Positions 41,518 to 55,089 of a stretch of 64,000 nt of DNA are shown here, piece after piece; position 1 is the first letter of the stretch, and each line of letters starts with the position of its first letter. The DNA is from Parcubacteria group bacterium (GTDB lineage: Bacteria > Patescibacteriota > Minisyncoccia > Phycocordibacterales > CSBR16-119). The stretch lies in NCBI GenBank assembly GCA_943356745.1, contig CALRFT010000003.1, positions 10,853 through 74,852 of the forward strand. Direction: 5' to 3'. The translations under genes and the position numbers were made by a program. The notes under the pieces were generated by a model. The model saw only the letters and a program-made list of their open reading frames with translations. It was not told the DNA's origin and made no database searches.

Positions 41518-42396
41518 ATGACACATGTAAAACTCGTACAACCACTTGAAACAACTGGTATCCATATTCGAGATCAGTATTCTCCAGAAGACACCGCAAT
41601 GATGCAAGCTCTTTATTCGCGAAGTCCTGACAGTGTTCTTAACCATGAAAAAAAGGTTGAGGAACAAGGATCTGAAAAATTTATGGATATATTCTATGTG
41701 GGATATGACCATAAAAGTATCGGTGATTGTGGGACCACAACCATCTTTATAGAAGGAGTCAGTATGATCACCGCAAAAATTTTGCAAGATTGGCAACTCT
41801 ACAGTGGACAAGAAGCAAGTACCCGGTATCTCGACTGGTCAAAACAATCTGTTATTGATCCTCTGAATACTGAACTTTCAAGAAGCATCATCCAAAAGAT
41901 GATGAACTTCTATGCTTGGGCTCAACCTAAGCTTGTAGAATTTTTGAAAGAAAAGTACGCAATGAAAGAAGGAGAAACAGAAAAGCAATACGAAAAAGCA
42001 ATCAATGCTCGTTCGTTTGACATCCTCCGTGGATTCCTTCCTTCCGGCGCACAAACCAATCTTTCATGGCACACAAATCTTAGACAAGCTGGTGACAAAC
42101 TTCAAAAGATGATTCACCATCCGCTACCAGAAGCTCGCATACTTGCAGAAAAAATCCTCTTACAACTTAAGGAAAAGTACACAGGAAGCTTTAACTTTCG
42201 TGACTATCCTGAAGGTGAAGAGTACACAAAAATGGAAATGGAAGAACTTGCTTTTTATGATCCTTGGTATGTTAATAAACCAACCCATGTCATGGATGGC
42301 GAAGTTTCTATGAAAACACAAATATGTGCAATGGATCTTCTTCCGTTTAAAAAATTCATTGACCAGAGACCTAAGTACACAAATCTCCCTGTTTAA
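41518..42396 (+). CDS. ThyX (Thy1, flavin-dependent thymidylate synthase)-like protein, divergent
   Basis: 292 aa. N-terminus ..MMQALYSRSPD.. matches the ThyX ..AARVSY.. region. ..ITAKILQDWQLYSGQEASTRY.. aligns position-for-position with the ThyX motif ARQWFRHRIASYNELSGRY but has DWQ in place of RHR. ..NLSWHTNLRQAGDKL.. matches the ThyX ..FFWTVNARSLMNFLNLR.. helix. Confidence 0.65.
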   Translation: MTHVKLVQPLETTGIHIRDQYSPEDTAMMQALYSRSPDSVLNHEKKVEEQGSEKFMDIFYVGYDHKSIGDCGTTTIFIEGVSMITAKILQDWQLYSGQEASTRYLDWSKQSVIDPLNTELSRSIIQKMMNFYAWAQPKLVEFLKEKYAMKEGETEKQYEKAINARSFDILRGFLPSGAQTNLSWHTNLRQAGDKLQKMIHHPLPEARILAEKILLQLKEKYTGSFNFRDYPEGEEYTKMEMEELAFYDPWYVNKPTHVMDGEVSMKTQICAMDLLPFKKFIDQRPKYTNLPV

Positions 42397-42411
42397 ACTG
42401 ATGAACTTGGA

Positions 42412-42864
42412 ATGATTACATGGGAATTCTTACTGGATTTTGGGTCTTTTCGTGATCTTCAACGCCACAGAAAAGGTGTTTGCCGTATTCCGAAACTCAC
42501 AGTTAAGTATGGTTTTGAATCTTGGTACCTTGATCAGCTTTCTCCAGAAATTAAAGAAGAGGCAGAAAATCTTCTTCGTGAAATTGAAAGTGACATTGTC
42601 GAATTGGGCGACGGACTTGAAGTTCAGTATTACATACCAATGGGATACAAAATCCCCTGCAAAAATACGTATGGGTTAATGGCAACTGTATACATCACTG
42701 AACTTCGTTCAGGAAAAACAGTTCATCCTACCATGAGAAAAATTGCCCAAGGTATGTATGAGAGACTTATGGAAAAGTTTCCCAATCTCAAACTCTACAC
42801 CGACCTCAGCGAAGATGAATTCTCGTATAAAAGAGGTGGTCAGGATATTATTGAGAAAAAGTAA
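42412..42864 (+). CDS. second, shorter ThyX-like domain protein retaining the RHR motif
   Basis: 150 aa. ..EFLLDFGSFRDLQRHRKGV.. matches the ThyX ..FTFHVKAPIFVARQWFRHR... C-terminal ..RKIAQGMYERLMEKFP.. matches ThyX ..ALAIARIFKEKCP... It is in the same reading frame as 41518..42396, separated only by one TAA codon (42394..42396). Confidence 0.6.
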   Translation: MITWEFLLDFGSFRDLQRHRKGVCRIPKLTVKYGFESWYLDQLSPEIKEEAENLLREIESDIVELGDGLEVQYYIPMGYKIPCKNTYGLMATVYITELRSGKTVHPTMRKIAQGMYERLMEKFPNLKLYTDLSEDEFSYKRGGQDIIEKK

Positions 42865-42866
42865 TT

Positions 42867-42896
42867 TAAAAACCCTGCACGTTTGCGGGGTTTTTC
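42867..42896 (+). terminator. hairpin ccctgc-acgttt-gcgggg plus T-run
   Basis: Stem plus U-run. Followed by a TTGACT -35-like element. Confidence 0.6.
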
Positions 42897-42960
42897 TTAT
42901 TTGACTAGACAGTCTTAAAAAGGTAATGTTTACAAAAAGTTCAATTAAATCTATAACACC

Positions 42961-43596
42961 ATGAGACTTTCTGCTATCGATATCAAAAAAGGAATCAATA
43001 AAGGATCTATTACTGTTGACCCATTGTTTCCCAATGCCATACAACCAGCAACAGTTGACCTCCATCTTGGAAGACACTTTCTTGTATTTGAAGCATCAAA
43101 CTTAAAATCACTTGATTTAACAAAACCAATGGAAGAACACATGCGGAAAGTAACACTTGATGAAAACCACCCAGAGTTTGTTCTTCATCCACACAAGTTC
43201 GCGCTCGGGATTACACACGAACTTATAGGGACTGACCTTGGTCACTGTTGCAAGATAGACGGAATTAGTTCGATTGCACGCGCAGGGATTTTTGTTCACA
43301 TCACAGCAAGCAACATCAATCCAGGTCACAAACTTCATGTAACTTTAGAACTATTCAATGCTCTTGAGGTTCCTGTTGCACTTCATTGGGGTATGCCTAT
43401 TGCACAGATGGAGTTTTATCAACTTAAAACCCCACTCACAAAAAATGACGTTTACAAAGGTAATTTTTCAACTGTTAGTAAACAATCCCCGACCGCAAGT
43501 CAGTACTTTAAAAACTACTTGCCAGAAAAAAGTGAATGGATAAAATTTATGTGTAAAATACATGGAATTAATCCAATAACATTTGAAAGAACCTAG
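42961..43596 (+). CDS. dcd: dCTP deaminase
   Basis: ..PATVDLHLGRHF.. and ..KIDGISSIARAGIFVHITA.. are dCTP deaminase/dUTPase-superfamily motifs; 211 aa. Confidence 0.85.
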   Translation: MRLSAIDIKKGINKGSITVDPLFPNAIQPATVDLHLGRHFLVFEASNLKSLDLTKPMEEHMRKVTLDENHPEFVLHPHKFALGITHELIGTDLGHCCKIDGISSIARAGIFVHITASNINPGHKLHVTLELFNALEVPVALHWGMPIAQMEFYQLKTPLTKNDVYKGNFSTVSKQSPTASQYFKNYLPEKSEWIKFMCKIHGINPITFERT

Positions 43597-43611
43597 TTTT
43601 TTCAGCAAATC

Positions 43612-43640
43612 AAAAGCGACCCTTTCGGGTCGCTTTTTTA
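43612..43640. terminator. bidirectional terminator aaaagcgaccc-tttc-gggtcgctttttt between dcd and rplK
   Basis: Perfect stem flanked by A-run and T-run. Confidence 0.75.
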
Positions 43641-43647
43641 TTTATAT

Positions 43648-44082
43648 TTAATCAACAATTTCTACTCCCATAGAAAAACATTGTCCTTCTACGATTTTCA
43701 TTGCTGCCTCAATTGTCTTAGCGTTAAGATCTGGCATTTTTTGCTCAGCAATCTTTTGAACTTGTGCCTTTGTAAGTTTCCCTACTTTCTTAGATCTGTT
43801 TTTTCCTGATCCTGAAGCGATTCCAAGTTCTTGCTTAATAAGGTGTGACATAAGAGTTTGTCCAACCGTAAATTCAAATGATCGGTCTTCGTACACAAAG
43901 ATTTTTACAGGAACCTTTCCTTTCATTTCTCGTGTTCGTTCGTTGAATTCTTGAGTGAACGCACTAATGTTTACTCCCGCTTGTCCAAGTGCTGGTCCAA
44001 GTGGTGGTTGTGGAGTAGCTTTTCCAGCTTCCACTTGCACTTTCACAGTCTTTACTGGTGCTTTTTTCTTTTTCGGTGCCAT
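43648..44082 (-). CDS. rplK: 50S ribosomal protein L11
   Basis: ..KVQVEAGKATPQPPLGPALGQAGVNI.. is canonical L11. Confidence 0.95.
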   Translation of the reverse strand: MAPKKKKAPVKTVKVQVEAGKATPQPPLGPALGQAGVNISAFTQEFNERTREMKGKVPVKIFVYEDRSFEFTVGQTLMSHLIKQELGIASGSGKNRSKKVGKLTKAQVQKIAEQKMPDLNAKTIEAAMKIVEGQCFSMGVEIVD

Positions 44083-44095
44083 AGTATTTTAGTAA

Positions 44096-44644
44096 TTAAA
44101 TCTTTTTAATCTGAAGAAAATCAAGTTCAACAGGAGTTTCTCGTCCGAACATATTTACAAGTACACGAATCTTTCCTCGTTCTTTGTCGATTTCAGCAAT
44201 CTTGCCTTCGTGGTCTTTAAATGGACCATCAACCACAAGAATACTTTCACCAATTTCAAGATCAAGGTTTGCAATATCTCGCTCACTTGTTTTCATTCGA
44301 CTGAAGATGTAGTTAATTTCTTCTTCAGCAACTGGAACTGGGTTTACCCCTGCCCCAACGAATCCTGTTACTCGTGGAGTGTTTCGAACAACATACCACG
44401 AATCATCATCCACAAGCATGTCCACAAGAACATATCCTGGATAAATTTTTTCTTCTGTTTCTGTTTTCTTTCCTCCTTTAATTTTTACTTTCTTCTCAAC
44501 TGGAACGATAACATCGAAAATTTTATTTTGCATTCCGAGTGTATCGATTCGTTGCTTCAAATTTCGCGCAACTGCATTTTCATATCCTGAATAGGTATGA
44601 ATTGCGTACCAGTTTCGATTTTGTGAACTATCTTGTTTTGCCAT
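44096..44644 (-). CDS. nusG: transcription termination/antitermination factor NusG
   Basis: NGN domain (..NWYAIHTYSGYENAV..) and KOW domain (..GESILVVDGPFKDHEGKIAEID..). Confidence 0.95.
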   Translation of the reverse strand: MAKQDSSQNRNWYAIHTYSGYENAVARNLKQRIDTLGMQNKIFDVIVPVEKKVKIKGGKKTETEEKIYPGYVLVDMLVDDDSWYVVRNTPRVTGFVGAGVNPVPVAEEEINYIFSRMKTSERDIANLDLEIGESILVVDGPFKDHEGKIAEIDKERGKIRVLVNMFGRETPVELDFLQIKKI

Positions 44645-44683
44645 AGATAGAAAAGGTATAAAAACCTATTAATTAATAAAAAA

Positions 44684-44860
44684 TTAAAGAATGATATTCA
44701 AAAGATAACTGAAGACGAAATCAAAGAATCCTAGGTAATATCCCACAAGAAATGCAGCTATTACAACAGCGATTGTTGAAACAATAGTTGTTTTTCGTGT
44801 TGGCCAATTGATATGTTTTGCTTCGGCTCGAGTATCTTTTATAAATTGAAAAATTTTCAT
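44684..44860 (-). CDS. secE: preprotein translocase subunit SecE (58 aa)
   Basis: Below the track cutoff; found by eye. ATG at 44860: MKIFQFIKDTRAEAKHINWPTRKTTIVSTIAVVIAAFLVGYYLGFFDFVFSYLLNIIL. Single TM; canonical position upstream of nusG. Confidence 0.75.
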   Translation of the reverse strand: MKIFQFIKDTRAEAKHINWPTRKTTIVSTIAVVIAAFLVGYYLGFFDFVFSYLLNIIL

Positions 44861-44994
44861 ATATTTTTTAGTCTGATAGAGAGGCGTCAGACTGTATTAT
44901 ACAAACCAGCTTTCACTATGTTTGTTATTAAAAAACACCCCTCAGGGCTCTTTTATATTACTTCTAACTAGGGTTTTTGTCAATCAAGACACTT

Positions 44995-45573
44995 TTAAAG
45001 ACCTTGAGTCCAAGTTACACCAAAAAGTATAAAAAGTACCAAAGTAATATTTCCCAAAAGACCTGGAATTATAAAACTAAGATATGGAAAACGAGCAAAC
45101 GAAAGAGCAACCATTAAAAAGTCTCCTGGAAGTGGAGTAAAACCTGTATACAAATACACAATAGACTGAACCACGAATCGAGGCTTTCGACTCAACCATT
45201 TTGCATATTTTTCTGCGAGTATTTTAATTTTTCCTGAAATATTATCTCTTCCCCATGTACCAATAAGATAAAAAATAGCATCACCGACTGAAAGGCCTGT
45301 TCCTGCAACCAAAGCAATCATCCAAGGATTGAGTCCAGTACTAGCAAGACTTACTATTGTTGCGTAATAAGAAGATGAAGTAAAACTTGAAGAACCAGCA
45401 ATCATTGCGACAAAAAAGAGAACTAGGTAACTATTTGTGACACCAATAGCTTCAATGACTTTTTCTATATCCACAAAGAAAAAAAGCACACCTAGTGTGA
45501 CCAGAAAGAAAAGTATCCAAATAATTCCTTTAAAGTGACGAACTCTATGTCTCATGTAAAAAGTATAACACAA
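44995..45573 (-). CDS. DedA/VTT-domain (TVP38/TMEM64-like) membrane protein
   Basis: 192 aa, 4-5 TM helices; ..GFTPLPGDFLMVALSFARFPYLSF.. resembles the VTT/DedA core. Confidence 0.6.
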   Translation of the reverse strand: MCYTFYMRHRVRHFKGIIWILFFLVTLGVLFFFVDIEKVIEAIGVTNSYLVLFFVAMIAGSSSFTSSSYYATIVSLASTGLNPWMIALVAGTGLSVGDAIFYLIGTWGRDNISGKIKILAEKYAKWLSRKPRFVVQSIVYLYTGFTPLPGDFLMVALSFARFPYLSFIIPGLLGNITLVLFILFGVTWTQGL

Positions 45574-45601
45574 TAAAAAAATCTCCTTGCGGAGATTTTT
45601 T

Positions 45602-46396
45602 TTATTTTATTTTAAACACCAATGTAACCTGCATTTCGAATTCATCTTCACCGACAGGAATTGAAACTGCTTTCATTTCTACTGATTCTGCCATCGCCAT
45701 ATCCATCCCACCCTCTCGAGCACTCATGTATGGTGCATACCCTCCAGTACTTTCGTAGAAATCAACCATCTTTCCAAGTCTTACACCAAGATTATCAGCA
45801 ATGATTTCTGCCTCTTTTCGAGCGTCTTCAATTGCCAAACTTCGAGCTTCTTGTTGATACACACTCGGGTCATCAATTTCAAAATATGGCCCAGAAAGTT
45901 CTGTTGCTCCACTTTGAGCAAGAACACCAAGTATTTCACCAGCCTGATCAATATTTCGAACGGTTACTTCAATTGATTGAGAAACTTCGTACGCAGCAAG
46001 TTCTCGATTTCCATCAACACAATATATTCCTGTGCAGTTTGGTTTGTAGTCATATCGAGGATAGGCATTGTAAGCAACTTGATCAATATCTTTTTCTTCA
46101 ATTCCATACTGTTTGAGAGATTCAAGAGCTTTTGAAATTGTTGCTTCAAGATTAGCTTGCGCAGTCTTGAGATCTTTATTTTCTTCTCTGTGACCAAAAG
46201 TAATTTTAGCAACATCTGGAACAGCTTTTACAGTACCGATACCTTGAACCTCAATAGTATCAGTATAATTATTCATTGAATTAGAGTTTCGATACATTGA
46301 AACTGCCGTAATTGAAAGAATAATTATCAAAAGCCCAAGGAAACCGGTCGCTGAATTAAGAAACAATTGTAATGCTTTGTTAGTATTTGAATCCAT
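45602..46396 (-). CDS. SIMPL-domain (DUF541, 26-kDa periplasmic immunogenic protein-like) protein
   Basis: N-terminal TM anchor; ..TIEVQGIGTVKAVPDVAKITFG.. and ..ARSLAIEDARKEAEIIADNLGVRLGKMV.. are typical SIMPL. Confidence 0.7.
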   Translation of the reverse strand: MDSNTNKALQLFLNSATGFLGLLIIILSITAVSMYRNSNSMNNYTDTIEVQGIGTVKAVPDVAKITFGHREENKDLKTAQANLEATISKALESLKQYGIEEKDIDQVAYNAYPRYDYKPNCTGIYCVDGNRELAAYEVSQSIEVTVRNIDQAGEILGVLAQSGATELSGPYFEIDDPSVYQQEARSLAIEDARKEAEIIADNLGVRLGKMVDFYESTGGYAPYMSAREGGMDMAMAESVEMKAVSIPVGEDEFEMQVTLVFKIK

Positions 46397-46400
46397 ATAA

Positions 46401-47132
46401 TTAGTGAGATTTTAATTGAAGGTACGGAGAAACAGTAAGAAGTGAGAACCAAGGCGCGAGTGCAATTCCAAATATGATTACAACTATTTCAGAAAGGATT
46501 GGAGAAATAAATCCAATTCTACTTGTAATAATCTGAACAACAGCCGAAAGAATACTTACACAAATAATGAAGAGAAGAAACTTCCATCCATTCCCTTTCA
46601 TCATTGTATGACTTTTTTTCATTGAATTTATAATTGTTTCTTTTGAATCAACAAGAATATACACAGAGAAAGCAAGACGAACTGCAACATATGCAACCCA
46701 AACAATAAATGCAGAAATTCCAAGAATTGGATGAATCTTTGAAAGTCCAAGAGAAAGGAGATATCCGATGATAAGTGCGCCCCCACCCACTAGTAGTAAT
46801 AATCCTGTTGTTTTTGCAATTAACTTAAAATTCCAAACTGATGAAAATGATTTCTTAAAGTGCACTTCTTTTGTTTTATACGCAACAAGAGAAAGATTAA
46901 TATTTACAAGAATAAAGTAAACACCTAAAAACAGGAATAGTGCAAGAAGTGGAATCATTACCCACCAAAGACCACGTAGAAGTAATACTGTACTAAGGAA
47001 TCCAGAAGCTCCAAATACAATATAAAGTCCTATAATTGCAACAAAACTTACTAGAATAAATGGCAAATAAAACTTTTTTGAAGTAAAAATACTCCAAGAG
47101 TCTTTAAAAGATTTTTTAATACTAAATGTCAT
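46401..47132 (-). CDS. hypothetical polytopic membrane protein
   Basis: 243 aa, about 6 TM helices, no family recognised. Confidence 0.45.
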   Translation of the reverse strand: MTFSIKKSFKDSWSIFTSKKFYLPFILVSFVAIIGLYIVFGASGFLSTVLLLRGLWWVMIPLLALFLFLGVYFILVNINLSLVAYKTKEVHFKKSFSSVWNFKLIAKTTGLLLLVGGGALIIGYLLSLGLSKIHPILGISAFIVWVAYVAVRLAFSVYILVDSKETIINSMKKSHTMMKGNGWKFLLFIICVSILSAVVQIITSRIGFISPILSEIVVIIFGIALAPWFSLLTVSPYLQLKSH

Positions 47133-47177
47133 AATTGTTTATTAATTTTAATAATTGATTTAATTATACAATATAAT

Positions 47178-47612
47178 TTATTGAATTCCCAAAAGCTCAA
47201 CTTCAAAGATAAGTGTTGAATTTGGAGGAATTGGGCCAACTTGATTATCTCCATATCCATACGCTGGCGGAATAATAAGTTTTCTCTTTTCACCAACTTT
47301 CATATTTTGAAGACCTTGATCCCAACCAGCAATTACACTTCCGGTTCCGTATGGAAACTCAAATGGTTGCCCTCGAGTCAAACTTGAATCAAATACAACA
47401 CCATCTTCTAATGTTCCCGTGTAATGAACCACAGCAATTTGCCCAGGTTGAAGCATTGCCTCACCAGTTCCTTCTTGCAAAACAGTAACCATGAGTTCAG
47501 ATTGAGATTGTTCCATTGTTTGATTCTCAGTATTTTGTTGAGGCTTCATAATAAAGACAACCCCAACAATAACACCTACGATTATAATAATTGAAATAAT
47601 TGTTTGTTTCAT
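47178..47612 (-). CDS. FKBP-type peptidyl-prolyl cis-trans isomerase, secreted or membrane-anchored
   Basis: Signal/anchor at the N-terminus, then ..[60 protein letters not shown].. (FKBP_C). Confidence 0.9.
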
Positions 47613-47624
47613 ATATATAGTATA

Positions 47625-48467
47625 TCACTTTAACAACTGAGAAACTTCATTTTGAATACGAGCAGCTGTACTTGGTGCAATATTAAAGTCTTTTATAAGT
47701 TTTTCTTTTGTGTAAGGCAACAAATCTTGAGCCAAAACAAGTCCATGAACAACCAGTTTCGATCTTGCATCTTCGGACATACTTGGTATTACAGTAATCG
47801 GATATGCTTTTGTTCGCTCAATCATTTTTTGTAAAGAGTCTCTATTTGGATAATTCCAACCAGTAAGTCTCACTCCTCCGCACTGTGCAAATTTTTGAGC
47901 ATGATCAGTAAACTCAGTATTCGTCATAATCCATGTATGAAAATGTTTTGTACCAAGTTCGTTATTTTTAGGGTTTGAAGCAATATCTTTCATTCGAGCA
48001 TCCGCATACATAACCTGATCAATATGTGTTCTACCATTTGCGTCATTTCGAAACTTTGCTTCAATCATGTAGTAGTTATTGTCTTTCCAGGCAAGTATAT
48101 CAACTTCGTGAGTCACACATCTTCCTTTCATCATTTGGTTTCTTTTTGTTTGATATCCATCTTGCCTAAGAAGTGCCTCAAGAAATTTTTCGAATAAAAA
48201 ACCATCTGGACCAAGAGCGTTAACCCCTCTTTTAATACTGTACTTTACAGCAATATCAACATCTTCCCTAACCAAGTGTCTTAATGTATCTCTGAAAACA
48301 AAAGAGGTTGTCATCCCGGGTTGAATTTTTTGATTTACAACCTTACAAATTTTTTCAGCTTGAGATTTACTTGCACCAGCCCTTACAATCGATTCACAAA
48401 GTTTATCCTCACTAAAAAAAACTGTTTCCCCTGTTGATTTTTTAATTTTTTTTAATGAATCTGTCAT
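47625..48467 (-). CDS. ATP-cone domain fused to a restriction-endonuclease-like (Mrr_cat/PD-(D/E)xK) domain
   Basis: N-terminus ..IKKSTGETVFFSEDKLCESIVRAGASKSQAEKICKVV.. fits the ATP-cone pattern of RNR/NrdR regulators. The middle ..FLFEKFLEALLRQDGYQ...HEVDILAWKDNNYYMIEAKFR.. fits the Mrr catalytic PD-(D/E)xK pattern. Confidence 0.6.
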   Translation of the reverse strand: MTDSLKKIKKSTGETVFFSEDKLCESIVRAGASKSQAEKICKVVNQKIQPGMTTSFVFRDTLRHLVREDVDIAVKYSIKRGVNALGPDGFLFEKFLEALLRQDGYQTKRNQMMKGRCVTHEVDILAWKDNNYYMIEAKFRNDANGRTHIDQVMYADARMKDIASNPKNNELGTKHFHTWIMTNTEFTDHAQKFAQCGGVRLTGWNYPNRDSLQKMIERTKAYPITVIPSMSEDARSKLVVHGLVLAQDLLPYTKEKLIKDFNIAPSTAARIQNEVSQLLK

Positions 48468-49381
48468 GGTTTTAATATATTAGTTAATGCATCCTCCAAG
48501 GTTTTAAAAGTGATTATATTGCCAAGCTCCCAAGCTCGAAGAGAAACAACTTTTTGGCTAGAAGTAATTTCTTCTGTAAATCCTCTATATTTGAGACGAA
48601 ATATGAATTTAGGAATCTTTAGGAAGTGAGGTTTTTCAAGAGTTTTTGCTAGTTGAAGAGAAAATTCTTGATATCTTACTGATTGAGGTGATACGGCATT
48701 TATAATTCCTTGAAAATTCTCATTTTTTATAACTGCAATATATATTTGAACAAGGTCAGCAATATGCATCCACGGGAACCAATTTTTTCCTTTTCCAACA
48801 GGACCACCTAAGCCTTTTTCATATATTAGCTTTAAAGCAGAAATAATTCCTGATTCACCTAAAATATTTCCCTGACGGATAATAACTGTTCTTGCGCCGT
48901 ATTTCACAGCTCGAGAACCTTCTTGCTCCCACTCAGAAGCAACGTGTGCAAGATAGGTATTTTTTTTACTTGGACTTCCTTCAGATAAAGTCTCTTCTCC
49001 ACAATCACCATACCATCCCGTTGCAGATACTTGGATAAAAGTTTTAGGGCAAAGATTTTTATCTTTAAAAGAAGATACGAGATTTCTTGTTGTTATAATT
49101 CTACTGGTATATATAGATTCTTTATGTTCTTTGTTCCAAGGACCCATGATAGATCTTCCAGCAAGATTAATAACAACGTCAGGATTTTTTATAAGCTGAC
49201 TATCAGGAACACCTTTTTCATAAGTGCCTTGAATAAAAGCAACACCGGAAATCTTTGATGCAACAAGATCAACAGAAACAACACTATTACCTTGGCGTAA
49301 AAGTTCACGAGAGAGTTTAGAACCTATAAAACCAGAACCACCGATAATAATTATTTTCATATATCTAATTATATCAAACAA
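48464..49381 (-). CDS. NAD-dependent epimerase/dehydratase family protein (YfcH/SDR39U1-like)
   Basis: MKIIIIGGSGFIGSKL.. Rossmann motif; 305 aa; C-terminal DUF1731-like region. Confidence 0.7.
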   Translation of the reverse strand: MFDIIRYMKIIIIGGSGFIGSKLSRELLRQGNSVVSVDLVASKISGVAFIQGTYEKGVPDSQLIKNPDVVINLAGRSIMGPWNKEHKESIYTSRIITTRNLVSSFKDKNLCPKTFIQVSATGWYGDCGEETLSEGSPSKKNTYLAHVASEWEQEGSRAVKYGARTVIIRQGNILGESGIISALKLIYEKGLGGPVGKGKNWFPWMHIADLVQIYIAVIKNENFQGIINAVSPQSVRYQEFSLQLAKTLEKPHFLKIPKFIFRLKYRGFTEEITSSQKVVSLRAWELGNIITFKTLEDALTNILKP

Positions 49382-49408
49382 AAACGCATCATACGATGCG
49401 TTTTTGTT
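49376..49408. terminator. hairpin aaaacgcatc-atac-gatgcgttttt
   Basis: Perfect 10-bp stem flanked by A-run and T-run. Confidence 0.7.
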
Positions 49409-50127
49409 TATTTTTTACCAATAAGTACTGAAACTATTTGATCTACTTGAGCAAATGGAGTTGCACCTCGCAAAGGAAAAGTTTCTCCATTAGAAGTAAT
49501 AACGATTGAATGAGGTGTTCCGTTTGCACCAATCAATCTTGCTTCAGCGGCATTTTCCTGCACAGCTTTTGCAACCTCTTCACTTCCCTGACATTCCCAG
49601 AAATCTTCTTCGCTTGAAAAACCAAGTTTAAGGGCCTCTTGAACAAGAATATCATTTGTGATGTCTGGAAATTCTGCAAACAAAGCATCTGAATATTGCC
49701 AGAATGCCTCATCACCAAGTCTTTGCCCTACACACTCAGAAGCAAGAGCTGCTTCATTGTTTCGATATGGAAGATGTCTGTAAACCCAAGCAACATCATC
49801 AGGATATTTTTCTACAATATCCCGAAGTGTTGGATGAAACGAAGCGCAGAAACCACAACCAAAATCAGAAAACTCAACAATTGTAACTTTTGGGCGCTTT
49901 GCACCTCGTATAAAGTCTTCCTTGTCATCCACTTCATACAGAAGTTTTGCTCCCCCAGACTCTTCTGCAATTCTATTTGTTGCATCTGTAAGTGCTGAAG
50001 ACCGATTAAAGAAAATCTGAGACACTAGAATAGATATAGCTATTAATGCACCGGCAATAATAATTGCCTTTTGCGTTGTAAGTCCAGAAAAAACTTTTTT
50101 TATGTGGTTTTTATTTTCTTCATGCAT
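49408..50127 (-). CDS. DsbA-family thiol:disulfide oxidoreductase, membrane-anchored (BdbD-like)
   Basis: TM anchor then ..TIVEFSDFGCGFCASFHP.. (thioredoxin-fold CxxC). Start is ambiguous between 50127 and 50136; either overlaps the SET gene 3' end by about 30 nt. Confidence 0.8.
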   Translation of the reverse strand: MHEENKNHIKKVFSGLTTQKAIIIAGALIAISILVSQIFFNRSSALTDATNRIAEESGGAKLLYEVDDKEDFIRGAKRPKVTIVEFSDFGCGFCASFHPTLRDIVEKYPDDVAWVYRHLPYRNNEAALASECVGQRLGDEAFWQYSDALFAEFPDITNDILVQEALKLGFSSEEDFWECQGSEEVAKAVQENAAEARLIGANGTPHSIVITSNGETFPLRGATPFAQVDQIVSVLIGKK

Positions 50128-50519
50128 GATGTGCATTTACATCCTATTGGTTTTATAAATTCGTTAAAATATTCCTTACCGTAATCGTAGTTTATCTCTT
50201 CACCCTTTGCAATATCTTTTATTGCGTAAATTTTTATTTCACCCCTATCAATCTCCACTTCTGCATTTGGTTTACATGCATGATTGATATATCGTGCAAT
50301 ATTTTCACGCATTGCACCGTCAATTGTAAAATGATCATCGACTTCAAAGAGATACTTCCCTGGATGGTCTTCGCATTTTGCGTTTGGGATAATTTCACCA
50401 ACATAATCGATGATGTAATCACCCTTTTTAATTTGCTCTTCAGCAAAAAGACCAAGCCCAGCACCCTTTTCAGCTCTTCCTACTTTTACTTTTTTTCCAA
50501 TTACCGGTTTTATTTTCAT
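50100..50519 (-). CDS. SET-domain protein (putative lysine methyltransferase)
   Basis: 139 aa: ..GLGLFAEEQIKKGDYIIDYVGE.., NHACKPN (NHSC-like), ..GEEINYDYG.. (ELxxDY-like) and a post-SET Cys cluster GCKCTSC. Confidence 0.8.
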   Translation of the reverse strand: MKIKPVIGKKVKVGRAEKGAGLGLFAEEQIKKGDYIIDYVGEIIPNAKCEDHPGKYLFEVDDHFTIDGAMRENIARYINHACKPNAEVEIDRGEIKIYAIKDIAKGEEINYDYGKEYFNEFIKPIGCKCTSCMKKIKTT

Positions 50520-50541
50520 ACAAGGGAAATATTATTGTGTA

Positions 50542-51198
50542 TTAATTTGAAGTAGTGTAAACAACGAAATCTAGTTTAATAGTATCTTCAACAACAGAGT
50601 CTCCAATATCTTCAAAGAAAGATGATGAAAGAGTTGTTACACCCCAAAGAGTTCGATCGAGTTCGAATTGTCCTTGAATTTCATATCCTGTTTCTGTTTG
50701 TGAAAGAGTATAAGGAACAATAACTTCCTGTGTTACACCTTTCATAGTAAGCAAACCTTGCACTTGCTCATCTGCTTTTCCTGTAATAACAAAATTTGCT
50801 TGTGGATATGTTTCTACATCAAAAAAGTCAGCACTCTTAAGGTGATTTATAAGCATTTCTGGCTCATTTTCTCCAGAAAGAGTTGTCATATCAATAACAA
50901 GTTGTCCACCAACAACTTCCATTTCACCTGCTTCATTTTTTGGAGCAAGACCTAGGAAGGAAATATTTGTATCAAACTTGAGAGTTCCTGTATGACTCTT
51001 GATCTGAATTTTATTTTCTCCAAACCATGTAATGTAAGATTCATTACTAATTTTTTGTTGAGAGAAGTCACCCACAGAAGGAGTGAAATTTGCTGTTTCT
51101 CCGTTTGTAAGAGATGTGTTTTTTACAAAATCAACATTTCTAAAAACAAGAAATAGCACCACGATAACTAAAACAACGAGAAGGATTTTTTTAACCAT
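50542..51198 (-). CDS. YceI-like domain protein (secreted or anchored)
   Basis: Signal/anchor then ..WFGENKIQIKSHTGTLKFD.., ..HLKSADFFDVETYPQANFVITGK..GLLTMKGVTQEV.. matching the YceI family pattern. Confidence 0.65.
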   Translation of the reverse strand: MVKKILLVVLVIVVLFLVFRNVDFVKNTSLTNGETANFTPSVGDFSQQKISNESYITWFGENKIQIKSHTGTLKFDTNISFLGLAPKNEAGEMEVVGGQLVIDMTTLSGENEPEMLINHLKSADFFDVETYPQANFVITGKADEQVQGLLTMKGVTQEVIVPYTLSQTETGYEIQGQFELDRTLWGVTTLSSSFFEDIGDSVVEDTIKLDFVVYTTSN

Positions 51199-51207
51199 AT
51201 ATTTAAA

Positions 51208-52188
51208 TTAACTAGCTTTGTTATTTACTTCGTAATTAGTATTTTGTGATTCAAAGAAGTTTACAAGCTCATAGACATCAGTTGCTGTTGTCATCCATTT
51301 TGCAGGATTTGCAACATTGTAATATGGCTCAAGTCCAAGTTCTTCAAGTCGTCGATCTGCAACATACTGCACGTATTGATTTACGTATTCTGCATTAAGA
51401 CCAAGAATTCCATTTGGGAACAAGTCTTTGTTGTATTCAACTTCACAATTTACCCCCTCAATAATAATATTTCTTATCTCATCTGCAAAGTCCGCAGTGA
51501 GGAGTTCAGCATTCTCTTCAAGGATTGTCAAAATAAGGTTGATACCAAATTTAAGGTGAAGGGACTCATCTCGAATTACCCAGTTAATCATAGAACCGAA
51601 GTTTCGAAGTTTGTTTCTCTGTCTAAATGAAAGCATTACCATGAATCCTGAGTAGAACCATGTTCCCTCCATTACAATATTAGTCGCAACAAGATTTCGA
51701 ATAAAGTCTTTCTTTCCTTCAGCTGTTTCAATATCGAGACTTTGTTCAGTCATTCGTTCCATATATTTATTAATGAAATCTTCCTTCTTTTTCATTGAAG
51801 GCGTTTCAAGGTGAACCTTATAGATTTCATCTCGATCAAATGGGAATGTTTCGAGAACATATTCAAACGCAACACAGTGATTTGCCTCTTCCCACATTTG
51901 TTTTACCAAATACAGGTGGCATTCTGCTGATTTCAAATAAGGATATACCCCAAGTGCAAGTGAACGATTTACGATAAGTTCTGCTGGATTAAAAAATGCC
52001 ATAACAAACTTTACCGCCCTTTGTTCGTCCTCTGTCATTGCTTCAAAATCTTGAAGATCTTCTCGAAGAACAATTTCGTGAGGATACCATGTGTTTCGTA
52101 CCGCTTGATCATACAATTCTCGTGCCCAAGGATATTGACTTGGGTGCAAATTTACATCTGTTGGTGATGCTTTTCCAATGAGTGCCAT
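51208..52188 (-). CDS. nrdB: ribonucleoside-diphosphate reductase beta subunit (class I R2)
   Basis: Ferritin-like di-iron protein (..EANHCVAFEYVLE.., ..MVMLSFRQ.., ..DESLHLKFG..), adjacent to nrdA. Confidence 0.85.
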   Translation of the reverse strand: MALIGKASPTDVNLHPSQYPWARELYDQAVRNTWYPHEIVLREDLQDFEAMTEDEQRAVKFVMAFFNPAELIVNRSLALGVYPYLKSAECHLYLVKQMWEEANHCVAFEYVLETFPFDRDEIYKVHLETPSMKKKEDFINKYMERMTEQSLDIETAEGKKDFIRNLVATNIVMEGTWFYSGFMVMLSFRQRNKLRNFGSMINWVIRDESLHLKFGINLILTILEENAELLTADFADEIRNIIIEGVNCEVEYNKDLFPNGILGLNAEYVNQYVQYVADRRLEELGLEPYYNVANPAKWMTTATDVYELVNFFESQNTNYEVNNKAS

Positions 52189-52303
52189 ATATATAAATAA
52201 ATCTTAAAGTGTAATAATTAAAAAATTACTTGTGTCTGGGGAAACCCCTTTAACACCTTACACGACTAATAAAACGACCTTATTTCTGATAATCAAATAT
52301 TAT

Positions 52304-54835
52304 TTATTGACAACTGTCACACTGATTCAAGAGTGAAGGATCTTCTGGAACTGTTTCACTTATTCCCCCGTCAGCCATTGCGTAACTGATTTTTGGCTTT
52401 ACAGCTTGAACAGTTTCTTCCACTGCTACAGGTGATGGAGTTGGTGTACTTTGAAGCGCTGCAAAACCTTTTCGCCCTAGTGTTTCTCGCTTGTTTACTG
52501 TAACTGTACTTTGTTCAGCGTTGTGTCGCGGCTTTACATGTGCGTAGTACGTTGATTTCAAACCTTTTTCCCATGCATCACTATAGATGCTTGAGAGTTC
52601 GTCATTTTCTCTTGTTTCAAGATACATATTTCGAGAAATTGCTTGGTCAATCCACTTTTGTGCTCGCGCAGTAACCTCAATAACAGCTTTTGGATTAATT
52701 TCAAATGAAGATTTATATCGATTTCGAACATCTTCAGGAATTTCAAGAATATGCTGAACATCTCCATGACTTTCAATAATTTTTGTTCGAGTTTTTTCCC
52801 AAAGACCAAGTGTCTTAAGTTCATTTACCAAGTTCACGTTAATGTCCATGTATTTTCCAGAGAATTTACTTCGAGCAAACACTTGAGCAAATCGAGCATC
52901 CATCCCAGGAACAGTTCCTGCAACAAGACCAATATTTGCATTTGGTGCAACAGCCATAAGTGTCGCGTTTCGCATTCCCTTTTTTACTTTTACTCGAAGC
53001 GCATCCCAATCAAGTCCGCCATGATGCATTCCCGTATCAACAGTAAGCTTTCCTCCTCGAACCTTATTAAGTTCTGCAAGAGTATCGTATGGAACCATTC
53101 CCTTACTCCATCTTGATCCTTCGAAATTTGCATATGAACCTCTTTCTTGTGCAAGATCTGCACTTGTATCAATTGCAATGTAACTAATGAATTCGAATAC
53201 CTGATCAATGAATTTGTAGGTTTGTTCACTTTCATATGCCCAACCCATTTTTTCAATAGTGTCTGCAATTCCCATAACTCCCATGCCAACAGCTCGATTG
53301 TTTTGATCTGAATTTCGAGCCTCTGCTACTGGAAGTACATTGATATCAAGAAGATTATCAAGTGAACGAATACCTGTTCGTACTGTTGTCTCAAGTTTTT
53401 GCCAGTCTAACTCTCTTCCTTTTAAGTGTGTTGCAAGGTTAAGTGATCCGAGATTGCATACAGCAATGTTGTCTTTATCTTGCGGAAGTGCAATTTCTGT
53501 ACAAAGATTAGACATATGAATTGTTCCAGTGTTGTTGTTGATTGCCCGAACATTGAATGCATCTTTCCATGTGAGCCATGGGTGTGATGTACTTACAAGT
53601 GCAACAAGCATTTTTTTCCAAATCTTCACAGCACTATCAACTTTATGAAGTCGAAGTTTTCCTTCTTGAGCCATCGTAATATATTCAGCATATCGCTTTG
53701 AGAATTTTTCTCCATACAACTCAACAAGATCTGGTGTTTCTTTTGGATCGAACATATACCATTCTTCATCAGCGTGAACTCGTCGCATAAATTCGTCGTT
53801 AATATACGCCGCAGTATTTGCTGTTCTCATTCTCTCGTGTTCGTCTCCTGCGTTGTGTTTCCAATCAATAAATTCTGGAAAATCCATGTGCCATGGTTCC
53901 ATATAGAAACAAAGCGCTCCTTTTTTCTTTCCACCTCGAACGATTGAACGAATAGCAACGTCCATGATTTTTGCAAAAGTTGTTGGACCACTTGAAGCTC
54001 CTCCATGAGAAAGCGGTGAACCTGTGGCTCGAAGTTTTGTAACAGAAACCCCAAGTCCTCCTGTTGCTTTTGAAATCATCATCACATCAGCAACTGTTTT
54101 TGAAATATTTGCCATGTCATCTTCCATTTGAATCAAGAAACAGTTTGAGAGTGCTGCATTTTTTGTTCCTGATCCAATATTTGCTGAACCTCCAGCAATA
54201 TAATCAAGTTGTGACATTGCGTTGTAAAGCTCAATTGCTTTTTCTGTCGCATCTTTTTCAATGAACGTAAGTCCCATTGCAATTCGCATAAAAGCAAACT
54301 GTGGAGTTTCGTATGATGTTTCCCCGTCTCGCTTAAGCGTATATCGGTGCATCAATGTTGAAGCACCAGCGTAATCAAAAAGATTATCTCTTTCAACCTT
54401 AAGTGCTTTTGCAAGTTTTTCAAGATCGAAATTGTTTTTCATTTCTTCTCGAAGAATTCCTTTTGTTACTGCATCTTGAATGTGTTTTGCAAATTTAGCT
54501 TCGTGAAGTTCTTGAACAGCATTTGGGTTATCTCGTTCAAATTCACCAAGAATATTTTTGTAAACTGTTTTTAAGAAAAGTCGAGTTGCAACAGTACCGT
54601 AATCTGGATCATTTTGTATATTTTGGAGTGCTGCACTAATTGTAGCCTGATCAAGTTCGTCTTCTGTAATTCCATTATAAAGAGTAAGTGAAGTCTCAGT
54701 TGCAATTTGAGTCACTTTTGAAAGCCAGTCAGGAAGGCCAGCGCAAGCTCGTTCAATAGATTTGTTAATTTTATCAGCGTCAAATGGTTGTTTTGAACCA
54801 TCTCGCTTTGTTACATAGATTGTAGTCATAAGCAA
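52304..54835 (-). CDS. nrdA: ribonucleoside-diphosphate reductase alpha subunit (class I) with N-terminal ATP-cone
   Basis: ATP-cone MTTIYVTKRDGSKQPFDADKINKSIERA.., catalytic ..NLCTEIALP.. and a C-terminal Cys pair (..CDSCQ). Confidence 0.9.
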   Translation of the reverse strand: MLMTTIYVTKRDGSKQPFDADKINKSIERACAGLPDWLSKVTQIATETSLTLYNGITEDELDQATISAALQNIQNDPDYGTVATRLFLKTVYKNILGEFERDNPNAVQELHEAKFAKHIQDAVTKGILREEMKNNFDLEKLAKALKVERDNLFDYAGASTLMHRYTLKRDGETSYETPQFAFMRIAMGLTFIEKDATEKAIELYNAMSQLDYIAGGSANIGSGTKNAALSNCFLIQMEDDMANISKTVADVMMISKATGGLGVSVTKLRATGSPLSHGGASSGPTTFAKIMDVAIRSIVRGGKKKGALCFYMEPWHMDFPEFIDWKHNAGDEHERMRTANTAAYINDEFMRRVHADEEWYMFDPKETPDLVELYGEKFSKRYAEYITMAQEGKLRLHKVDSAVKIWKKMLVALVSTSHPWLTWKDAFNVRAINNNTGTIHMSNLCTEIALPQDKDNIAVCNLGSLNLATHLKGRELDWQKLETTVRTGIRSLDNLLDINVLPVAEARNSDQNNRAVGMGVMGIADTIEKMGWAYESEQTYKFIDQVFEFISYIAIDTSADLAQERGSYANFEGSRWSKGMVPYDTLAELNKVRGGKLTVDTGMHHGGLDWDALRVKVKKGMRNATLMAVAPNANIGLVAGTVPGMDARFAQVFARSKFSGKYMDINVNLVNELKTLGLWEKTRTKIIESHGDVQHILEIPEDVRNRYKSSFEINPKAVIEVTARAQKWIDQAISRNMYLETRENDELSSIYSDAWEKGLKSTYYAHVKPRHNAEQSTVTVNKRETLGRKGFAALQSTPTPSPVAVEETVQAVKPKISYAMADGGISETVPEDPSLLNQCDSCQ

Positions 54836-55089
54836 ACAAACAACGAATTATTTAATAAATTGGGGATAAAAAAAAGCCTAATTTCAAGACTTTTCTAATT
54901 TACTCTATGTAATAGTGGTTATGTGGGAAACACTATCACACAACTCACGAAGCAGCACTCCAGCTCCTTCGTGTGATTATTGTATCAGTGTGTCGATGAG
55001 GGTTTTCCCCAAGTCTTGAAAAATAAAGACCGAAAAAATTAAAAAGAAACAAAAAGAAAAAATGTAAACAAGTCCAAAACAAAAAACCC

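Follow-up and report, generated by a model that had tools for sequence, protein, structure and literature searches.

The 64,000-nucleotide stretch of a Parcubacteria group bacterium analysed here (contig CALRFT010000003.1; hereafter the window) carries a gene whose product joins an N-terminal ATP-cone, a PD-(D/E)xK nuclease core of the Mrr_cat type and a C-terminal helix-hairpin-helix (HhH) domain that resembles the N-terminal domain of Rad51 (Table 1). The gene stands in a co-directional array which reads, in the window and on identical public contigs, nrdA, nrdB, YceI, SET, DsbA-like, epimerase, nuclease, FKBP, membrane protein, SIMPL, VTT, NusG and L11. Its product belongs to the family of the archaeal protein AF1548, and in this family all three domains are under purifying selection.

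Domain structure, active site and family

Pfam profiles assign the core of the window protein to Mrr_cat (PF04471; residues 89-201, 35.2 bits against a cut-off of 21, E = 1.5e-8) and its C-terminal part to AF1548-like_C (PF22357; residues 222-279, 26.4 bits against a cut-off of 23.9), whereas the ATP-cone (PF03477) reaches only 17.9 of the required 25.8 bits, over residues 7-54 and profile positions 2-56 of 88. By profile alone, the nuclease and C-terminal domains are secure and the ATP-cone is not. The cone call is rescued because 24 of 25 aligned relatives match PF03477 at E <= 0.01 (best E = 3.9e-9), because the predicted structure shows the cone fold, and because Foldseek superposes that structure on the cones of NrdR. 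Scanned singly, the same 25 family members match Mrr_cat in every case, the ATP-cone in 24 and AF1548-like_C in 22, and a precomputed PF03477 match is attached to many of the 69 homologues of ~275-280 residues that were found. The AlphaFold2 model of the window protein, built from the 25-member alignment (pLDDT 93, pTM 0.88), places strands at residues 7-9 and 15-17 and helices at 20-29, 34-47, 54-68 and 70-83; a beta-hairpin followed by four helices, as modelled, is the topology of an ATP-cone. In a Foldseek search of the PDB the N-terminal part of the model falls on the E. coli NrdR cones at 1.8-1.9 Å over 81 columns, and it also aligns with the cones of NrdB, NrdD and NrdA. The initial annotation, made from the sequence, had described an ATP-cone fused to an Mrr-like PD-(D/E)xK core and followed by a helical C-terminal region. 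The fusion is borne out by the relatives' PF03477 matches, the model, the Foldseek result and the Mrr_cat score, with the reservation that the window protein's own cone stays below its profile threshold, and the helical region proves to fold like the N-terminal HhH domain of Rad51 and RadA.

The residues by which NrdR contacts its ligands are K53, E59, P60, F61, K65, L66, S105, I108 and Y131 (bioRxiv 10.1101/2025.03.28.645925). In an alignment with the NrdR and NrdA cones, in which the numbering of the reference sequences agrees with that report, K10 and K22 of the window protein fall on K53 and K65 of NrdR and on K9 and K21 of NrdA; the second half of the cone (T54, V57, Y76, R80) was placed on NrdR by an ungapped alignment made by eye, not by structural superposition. 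Conservation was measured across 250 non-redundant family sequences filtered to <=80% identity. K10, F18, K22, L23, T54 and V57 occupy NrdR nucleotide-contact positions and are 90-100% conserved in kind; individual values are 98% for K10, 99% for G13, 99% for F/Y18 and 98% for K22 in the first half of the cone, and 100% for T/S54, 100% for I/L/V57 and 98% for Y76 in the second. With a mean consensus frequency of 0.47, as against 0.54 for the nuclease core, the cone is constrained nearly as strongly as the core. The position of the nucleotide lid (E59 in NrdR) is Glu in 79% of the family and Val in 11%. The window protein and its close relatives belong to the latter group (Val16, codon 48420-48422), and the low Pfam score of the window protein's cone follows from the replacement of the lid Glu by Val. 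To judge from this substitution, the Val-lid subclade may bind nucleotide differently or not at all. The product of the window's nrdA, 6 kb away, itself carries an ATP-cone.

The nuclease core contains the motif quoted in the initial annotation, HEVDILAWKDNNYYMIEAKFR, at residues 120-140. No variation at E93, E121, D123, E136 or K138 is seen in the 25-sequence alignment or in the larger set (100% conservation), and G86, G89, F92, R158, D161 and N183 are likewise invariant. The E...ExD...ExK active site is therefore complete and invariant. D123, E136 and K138 correspond to D38, E51 and K53 of AF1548, which were predicted to be its catalytic residues in the GOS paper of 2007 (PMC1821046). The most conserved stretch of the family is the LGPxGFxFE junction between cone and core, whose Glu, E93, is likely to be the first-helix acidic residue of the active site. 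The fold neighbours of the core found by Foldseek are ordinary PD-(D/E)xK nucleases: NucS/EndoMS, Can2, Cdn1, MspJI, AspBHI and McrC.

When residues 205-280 were modelled alone (pLDDT 89), Foldseek returned 1Y88, the structure of AF1548, first, and then the N-terminal HhH domains of Rad51, RadA and Rad51 paralogues (rmsd 1.3-2.0 Å over 55-60 columns, TM ~0.65). The E-values of these HhH matches are weak (0.045-0.5), as expected because the query has only 76 residues. From this fold resemblance only, the C-terminal domain is probably a sequence-independent DNA-binding module.

Table 1. Features of the ATP-cone nuclease gene and its surroundings (window coordinates)
Feature	Position	Strand	Basis
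ATP-cone + PD-(D/E)xK + HhH open reading frame, AF1548 orthologue	47625..48467	minus	280 residues plus stop, ATG start
ATP-cone domain, residues 6-84	48216..48452	minus	beta-hairpin 7-17 and four helices 20-83; model, Foldseek, relatives' PF03477 matches
Junction motif L-G-P-x-G-F-x-F-E, residues 85-93	48189..48215	minus	G86, G89, F92, E93 100% conserved
PD-(D/E)xK (Mrr_cat) core, residues 89-205	47853..48203	minus	Pfam E = 1.5e-8; 1Y88 E = 1.4e-30; fold matches
Catalytic motif E121-x-D123 ... E136-x-K138	48054..48107	minus	four residues 100% conserved in 250 relatives
AF1548-like_C domain, residues 206-280	47628..47852	minus	PF22357 26.4 bits; domain model; Foldseek to Rad51/RadA N-terminal domains
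ATGA overlap of epimerase stop and nuclease ATG	48464..48467	minus	sequence read directly; gene calls on identical public contigs
Terminator-like hairpin AAAAACGCATC-GTAT-GATGCGTTTTT plus T-run, gap between DsbA-like and epimerase genes	49376..49409	minus	sequence only
Terminator-like hairpin after SIMPL	45575..45602	minus	sequence only

The only relative among PDB sequences is AF1548 (1Y88; phmmer E = 1.4e-30 over residues 86-271), and 1Y88 is also the top Foldseek match of the whole model (E = 6.8e-17, TM 0.80 on the target). A 265-residue Archaeoglobus protein (P0219), which shares 99% identity with the crystallised part of AF1548, begins with a canonical cone, MLRVRKRDGRLEEFSRAKI...; since the window protein aligns with P0219 from end to end and with the cone (35% identity, E = 3e-58), the window protein is an AF1548 orthologue. 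The crystallised construct begins with VARLLEE, downstream of the conserved LGPSGFGFEKF, so that the part corresponding to residues 1-96 of the window protein (48180-48467) is missing; with its start inside the nuclease domain, the sole solved structure of the family is without ATP-cone and first-helix Glu, probably because the original annotation took an internal GTG/Val start. The two proteins thus share an orthologous family, the D, E and K catalytic residues and, through the natural Archaeoglobus protein, full-length colinearity. They differ in that AF1548 is archaeal and the window protein bacterial (Patescibacteria), and in that the solved structure lacks the cone and LGPxGFxFE, so that no structure shows the arrangement of sensor and nuclease.

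A hidden Markov model search of 1.84 billion cluster representatives gave 2013 matches at E <= 1e-3 and 609 at E <= 1e-30, the latter being clusters at 50% identity. Nearly all of the best 150 of these 609 representatives are 270-295 residues long and match the profile end to end; the family architecture is rigid, without domain shuffling. With LGPxGFxFE as search pattern, a full-length relative was found in at least 598 genomes among the GTDB species representatives. Most of the GTDB matches listed are Patescibacteria, together with some Bacteroidota (Pontibacter ramchanderi, Terrimonas, Vicingaceae) and one Hadarchaeum, and a search from the AF1548 crystal sequence recovered full-length relatives in Archaeoglobi, Korarchaeota, Bathyarchaeia, Aenigmarchaeota, Nanoarchaeota and Altiarchaeales. 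Given this conservation in hundreds of Patescibacteria and many Archaea, the family is probably part of core DNA metabolism. Its members already bear public names such as 'ATP cone domain-containing protein', 'Restriction endonuclease/ATP cone domain', 'restriction endonuclease' (several, from NCBI) and 'Holliday junction resolvase' (some, from JGI), and the fusion is therefore not new. Within this catalogued, named and partly solved family the window gene is typical, and it adds nothing beyond that; what the present analysis defines is the full-length architecture and the invariant residues of the family.

Genomic context of homologous loci

Gene context was compared across 80 homologous loci, which are the best-scoring matches and in which one clade is over-represented. 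The initial annotation had drawn attention to the nearness of nrdAB. In the window nrdB indeed ends 2.7 kb upstream of the nuclease gene, on the same strand, but tblastn with the window's NrdA and NrdB found them within 8 kb at only one of the 80 loci, L001, the closest relative (73% identity). Nearness to nrdAB is therefore uninformative on function, and a functional linkage to nrdAB was rejected.

Other neighbours are kept further. The FKBP, DsbA-like and SIMPL genes accompany the nuclease gene in L002, L009 and L010, at 43-50% identity, so that synteny of the locus extends across considerable divergence; in L075 (37% identity) an FKBP match is also present, but on the upstream side. When the 1126 open reading frames around the 80 loci were clustered de novo, MnmA was found upstream of the nuclease gene in 39 of the loci, adjacent in 20. 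Further recurrent neighbours were MltG/YceG, AlaRS, a sigma70_r4/HARE-HTH protein, a Cas4-like PDDEXK_1 nuclease, DnaB, MgtC, UDG, RecR and LOG. The MnmA-linked loci form one clade (48% identity within it, 36% to the remainder), which points to synteny, not to a family-wide partnership, and MnmA was rejected as a conserved partner gene. Within this clade the pairwise identities of the nuclease track those of MnmA (Pearson 0.76; Mantel permutation 0/2000), with similar medians of 48% for the nuclease and 51% for MnmA. Divergence that follows that of MnmA at a similar rate is the pattern expected of a vertically inherited core gene.

Among the 144 proteins flanking 76 loci, bulk searches with PADLOC and Pfam revealed no defence system, and no methyltransferase was among the Pfam families most often matched. 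The families of these flanking genes include MnmA, MgtC, LOG, UDG and FKBP; the PADLOC 'QueC' matches among them are MnmA, and the 'Cas4' matches are a stand-alone, housekeeping-type nuclease. No common theme marks the contexts in Bacteroidota and Archaea (DUF2911, PEP synthase, permeases, a beta-CASP protein, radical SAM, SPOR, AcrB, CorA, MscS). At the Ferroglobus locus, genes for a HicA toxin, an IS240 transposase and a Prim-Pol protein lie within 6 kb, and Geoglobus encodes a canonical Hjc at a distance of 2 kb from its ATP-cone nuclease. The initial annotation had named housekeeping surroundings, together with loss of the catalytic residues, as what would speak against its proposal; the surroundings of the family are indeed of the housekeeping kind, but the catalytic residues are fully conserved.

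Two further arrangements recur. In a Kaiserbacteria/Paceibacteria-like clade the nuclease gene lies in a conserved block with a Cas4-like PDDEXK_1 nuclease, a family-4 UDG, RecR and DnaB. The Cas4-like protein is stand-alone and has four Cys (L026 5220-6038 and 20 other loci; cluster C6), the UDG is exemplified by L060 11624-12223, and RecR (cluster C13) and DnaB (cluster C9) were assigned by eye; this DNA-maintenance neighbourhood may be meaningful or plain synteny. The second arrangement is a transporter or channel gene immediately upstream on the same strand, often overlapping the nuclease gene, as in the archaeal loci L085 (4958-6001), L086 (3722-5998) and L087 (5193-6035) and in the bacterial loci outside Patescibacteria L073 (6661-7983) and L037 (4624-7989); the proteins at these five loci are CorA, an amino-acid permease, MscS and AcrB. 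MgtC adjoins the nuclease gene in ~12 Patescibacteria loci. When 80 bacterial loci were tested by hydrophobicity, transporters proved not to be enriched beside the gene (12% vs 9%, p = 0.16; p = 1 at the level of clusters), and adjacency to membrane transporters was rejected as a trait of the family.

A proposed nucleotide-responsive nuclease and its alternatives

The reading preferred here, to which a probability of about 0.55 is given, is that the gene encodes a chromosomal, vertically inherited, predicted DNA endonuclease of the AF1548 family which is switched by adenine nucleotides and has a housekeeping role. The HhH domain would hold duplex DNA without sequence specificity, and the core would cut it with Mg2+. 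The ATP-cone would bind ATP and/or dATP, and binding would change the oligomeric state, so that a nuclease dimer or active oligomer is assembled or sequestered and DNA cleavage is made to depend on the cell's ATP/dATP status. The predicted switching follows the established logic of ATP-cone proteins, which act via nucleotide-dependent oligomerisation (PMC12051234; bioRxiv 10.1101/2025.03.28.645925), with ATP and dATP competing for the cone and acting through the oligomeric state (PMC4390871, PMC12051234, bioRxiv 10.1101/2025.03.28.645925). The cones of NrdA, NrdB and NrdD are homologous allosteric domains for which this competition is expected (PMC4390871, PMC12051234); the regulated enzyme there is a reductase, whereas here it is a predicted nuclease. 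The role would be housekeeping, for instance the processing of repair or recombination intermediates or a controlled DNA turnover linked to dNTP supply, and neither restriction nor abortive infection, over which the genomic context favours it. The 'regulated DNA degradation' offered as one option in the initial annotation may be correct and comes near to this explanation.

Several points weigh against this reading. PD-(D/E)xK folds can cut RNA as well as DNA. The word 'housekeeping' is taken from genomic context only; few islands can be recognised in genomes of Patescibacteria, context is a weaker guide in them than in well-studied phyla, and the loci compared are best-scoring matches with one clade in excess. 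A single-gene defence nuclease could likewise descend vertically. On the side of the sensor, the window protein's cone falls short of its Pfam cut-off and has Val16 where NrdR and NrdA have the lid Glu, and ribonucleotide reductases (RNRs) include non-functional ATP-cones that are inseparable from functional ones by sequence profile (PMC4390871). The E-values behind the HhH assignment are weak. No functional study of the ATP-cone/nuclease fusion or of AF1548 was found in the literature searched, in which the original ATP-cone paper was not covered; of what was found, only the prediction of catalytic residues for AF1548 made in 2007 (PMC1821046) is relevant.

The alternatives each take up one part of the evidence. 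The combination of a nuclease with a following HhH domain recalls the structure-specific nucleases of the XPF/Mus81 type (nuclease plus HhH2), Hjc-type enzymes have the same PD-(D/E)xK fold, some members carry the resolvase name given by JGI, and RecR, DnaB, UDG and the Cas4-like nuclease recur nearby in one clade; all this would suit a protein that is the cell's Holliday-junction or branched-DNA resolvase. That the family has this function is nevertheless unlikely. The Pfam match to Hjc (PF01870) is weak and sub-threshold (17.8 bits, cut-off 21.1), the window protein has no ERCC4 domain match, the repair-gene neighbours are clade-specific synteny, and the coexistence of a canonical Hjc in Geoglobus means that the ATP-cone nuclease is not simply the cell's Hjc. 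The public name 'restriction endonuclease', which implies an Mrr-like (type IV) or orphan type II enzyme, can appeal to Mrr_cat as the best Pfam match and to MspJI, AspBHI and McrC among the fold neighbours. The likeness to Mrr is one of common fold: Mrr_N and any other specificity domain are missing from the window protein in Pfam, an HhH DNA-binding module is typically sequence-independent, and no methyltransferase is among the families that the genes flanking 76 loci match most often. Restriction genes are usually patchy and mobile, in contrast to the vertical inheritance and housekeeping context found here, and a restriction function is regarded as very unlikely.

The initial annotation had also suggested a role in phage defence. 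In that reading the cone of a stand-alone nuclease would sense a phage-induced change in dATP or ATP and release the enzyme onto phage or host DNA. Nucleotide-pool sensing is a plausible logic for defence, the Ferroglobus locus with its toxin and transposase could be taken the same way, and the layout, a sensor followed by a PD-(D/E)xK effector, resembles that of the CARF/SAVED effectors Can2, Card1 and Cdn1, in which an N-terminal sensor of a nucleotide ligand gates a C-terminal nuclease; Can2 and Cdn1 are fold neighbours of the core, with weak PADLOC matches besides. The sensor of these effectors is a CARF domain, however, where the present family has an ATP-cone whose ligand is presumably ATP/dATP and not cyclic oligoadenylate, and the family has no CRISPR or CBASS context and is not a member of that group. 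PADLOC-DB 2.0 yields only generic, partial matches to the nuclease domain (the ZorD C-terminus, CARF_PDDEXK, REase_II), no recognised defence partner occurs among the 144 flanking genes of 76 loci, and retained synteny, divergence in step with MnmA (r = 0.76) and an architecture without domain shuffling all argue against it. A defence function was thus not borne out and is considered improbable, and a defence-island reading is removed. Most improbable is an NrdR-like regulator in which the nuclease fold only binds DNA near nrdAB. The protein has the sensor fold of NrdR, with its lysines and its aromatic and hydrophobic ligand positions, joined to a DNA-binding output; nrdAB is 2.7 kb away; and neither an NrdR gene nor an NrdR box was found in the 64-kb window, which is only part of a genome and so does not establish the absence of NrdR. 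The Zn-ribbon of NrdR is absent here (the cone starts at residue 6), and the output is a catalytically intact core plus an HhH domain that is not a sequence reader. Linkage to nrd genes is not conserved, and complete conservation of the catalytic residues is unexpected for an inactivated fold. Where NrdR has Tyr131, which acts as discriminator of the outer site, the nuclease family mostly has Arg or Lys, according to the ungapped mapping by eye. In view of the partial-genome window and the invariant catalytic residues, replacement of NrdR was judged unlikely.

To our knowledge ATP-cones have been studied in two settings only, the RNRs and the repressor NrdR. The family would add a third setting, with a nuclease under the control of this ATP/dATP sensor. 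A bolder form of the preferred reading, for which the chances are rated low, places the family beside RNR and NrdR as a functional class of ATP-cone proteins in its own right. Its members would be nucleases that respond to the dATP/ATP ratio and so tie the breakdown or processing of DNA to deoxynucleotide supply. Nucleotide-auxotrophic Patescibacteria and DPANN archaea could in that case release deoxynucleotides from DNA at low dATP, with ATP turning the enzyme on and dATP turning it off; if true, such regulation would mirror that of the RNR encoded 3-6 kb away.

Transcription unit and neighbouring genes in the window

The start of the nuclease gene overlaps the stop of the epimerase gene, and the FKBP gene begins 12 nt past the nuclease stop. 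From the arrangement of genes and hairpins, the nuclease probably belongs to a five-gene unit (epimerase, nuclease, FKBP, membrane protein, SIMPL) separate from nrdAB, of which the terminator-like hairpin before the epimerase gene is the probable upstream boundary and that after SIMPL the probable downstream one. The gene had been described as separately transcribed; transcription apart from nrdAB is plausible because of the upstream hairpin, but the overlap and the short distance to FKBP speak against a solo gene. A promoter scan gave 32 sigma-70-like sites, fewer than the 37 expected from shuffled sequence, and is therefore uninformative.

Within 13 kb (41518-54835) the window groups the dNTP-metabolism genes ThyX, Dcd, nrdB and nrdA with the ATP-cone nuclease, interleaved with L11, NusG, SecE and envelope genes. 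The grouping is only partly kept in relatives, ThyX in L002 and nrdAB in L001. The gene for the ThyX-like thymidylate synthase (41518-42864, plus strand) is split by an in-frame TAA at 42394-42396; the first reading frame matches Pfam Thy1, and the second, in the same frame, has the RHR ThyX signature FRDLQRHRKG. The split could reflect a pseudogene, a sequencing error or an enzyme of two polypeptides.

The 5' leader of nrdA (54836-55030, minus strand) is predicted to fold far more stably than its shuffled versions (minimum free energy -54 kcal/mol, z = -4.46, 0/200 shuffles as good) and matches no Rfam family at threshold; it may be an undescribed cis-regulatory RNA. Finally, the housekeeping array of this Patescibacteria-type genome includes a gene for a SET-domain (lysine methyltransferase-like) protein of 139 residues (50100-50519, minus strand). 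This gene shares 37 nt with the start of the DsbA-like gene, and both L001 and L002 have kept it.

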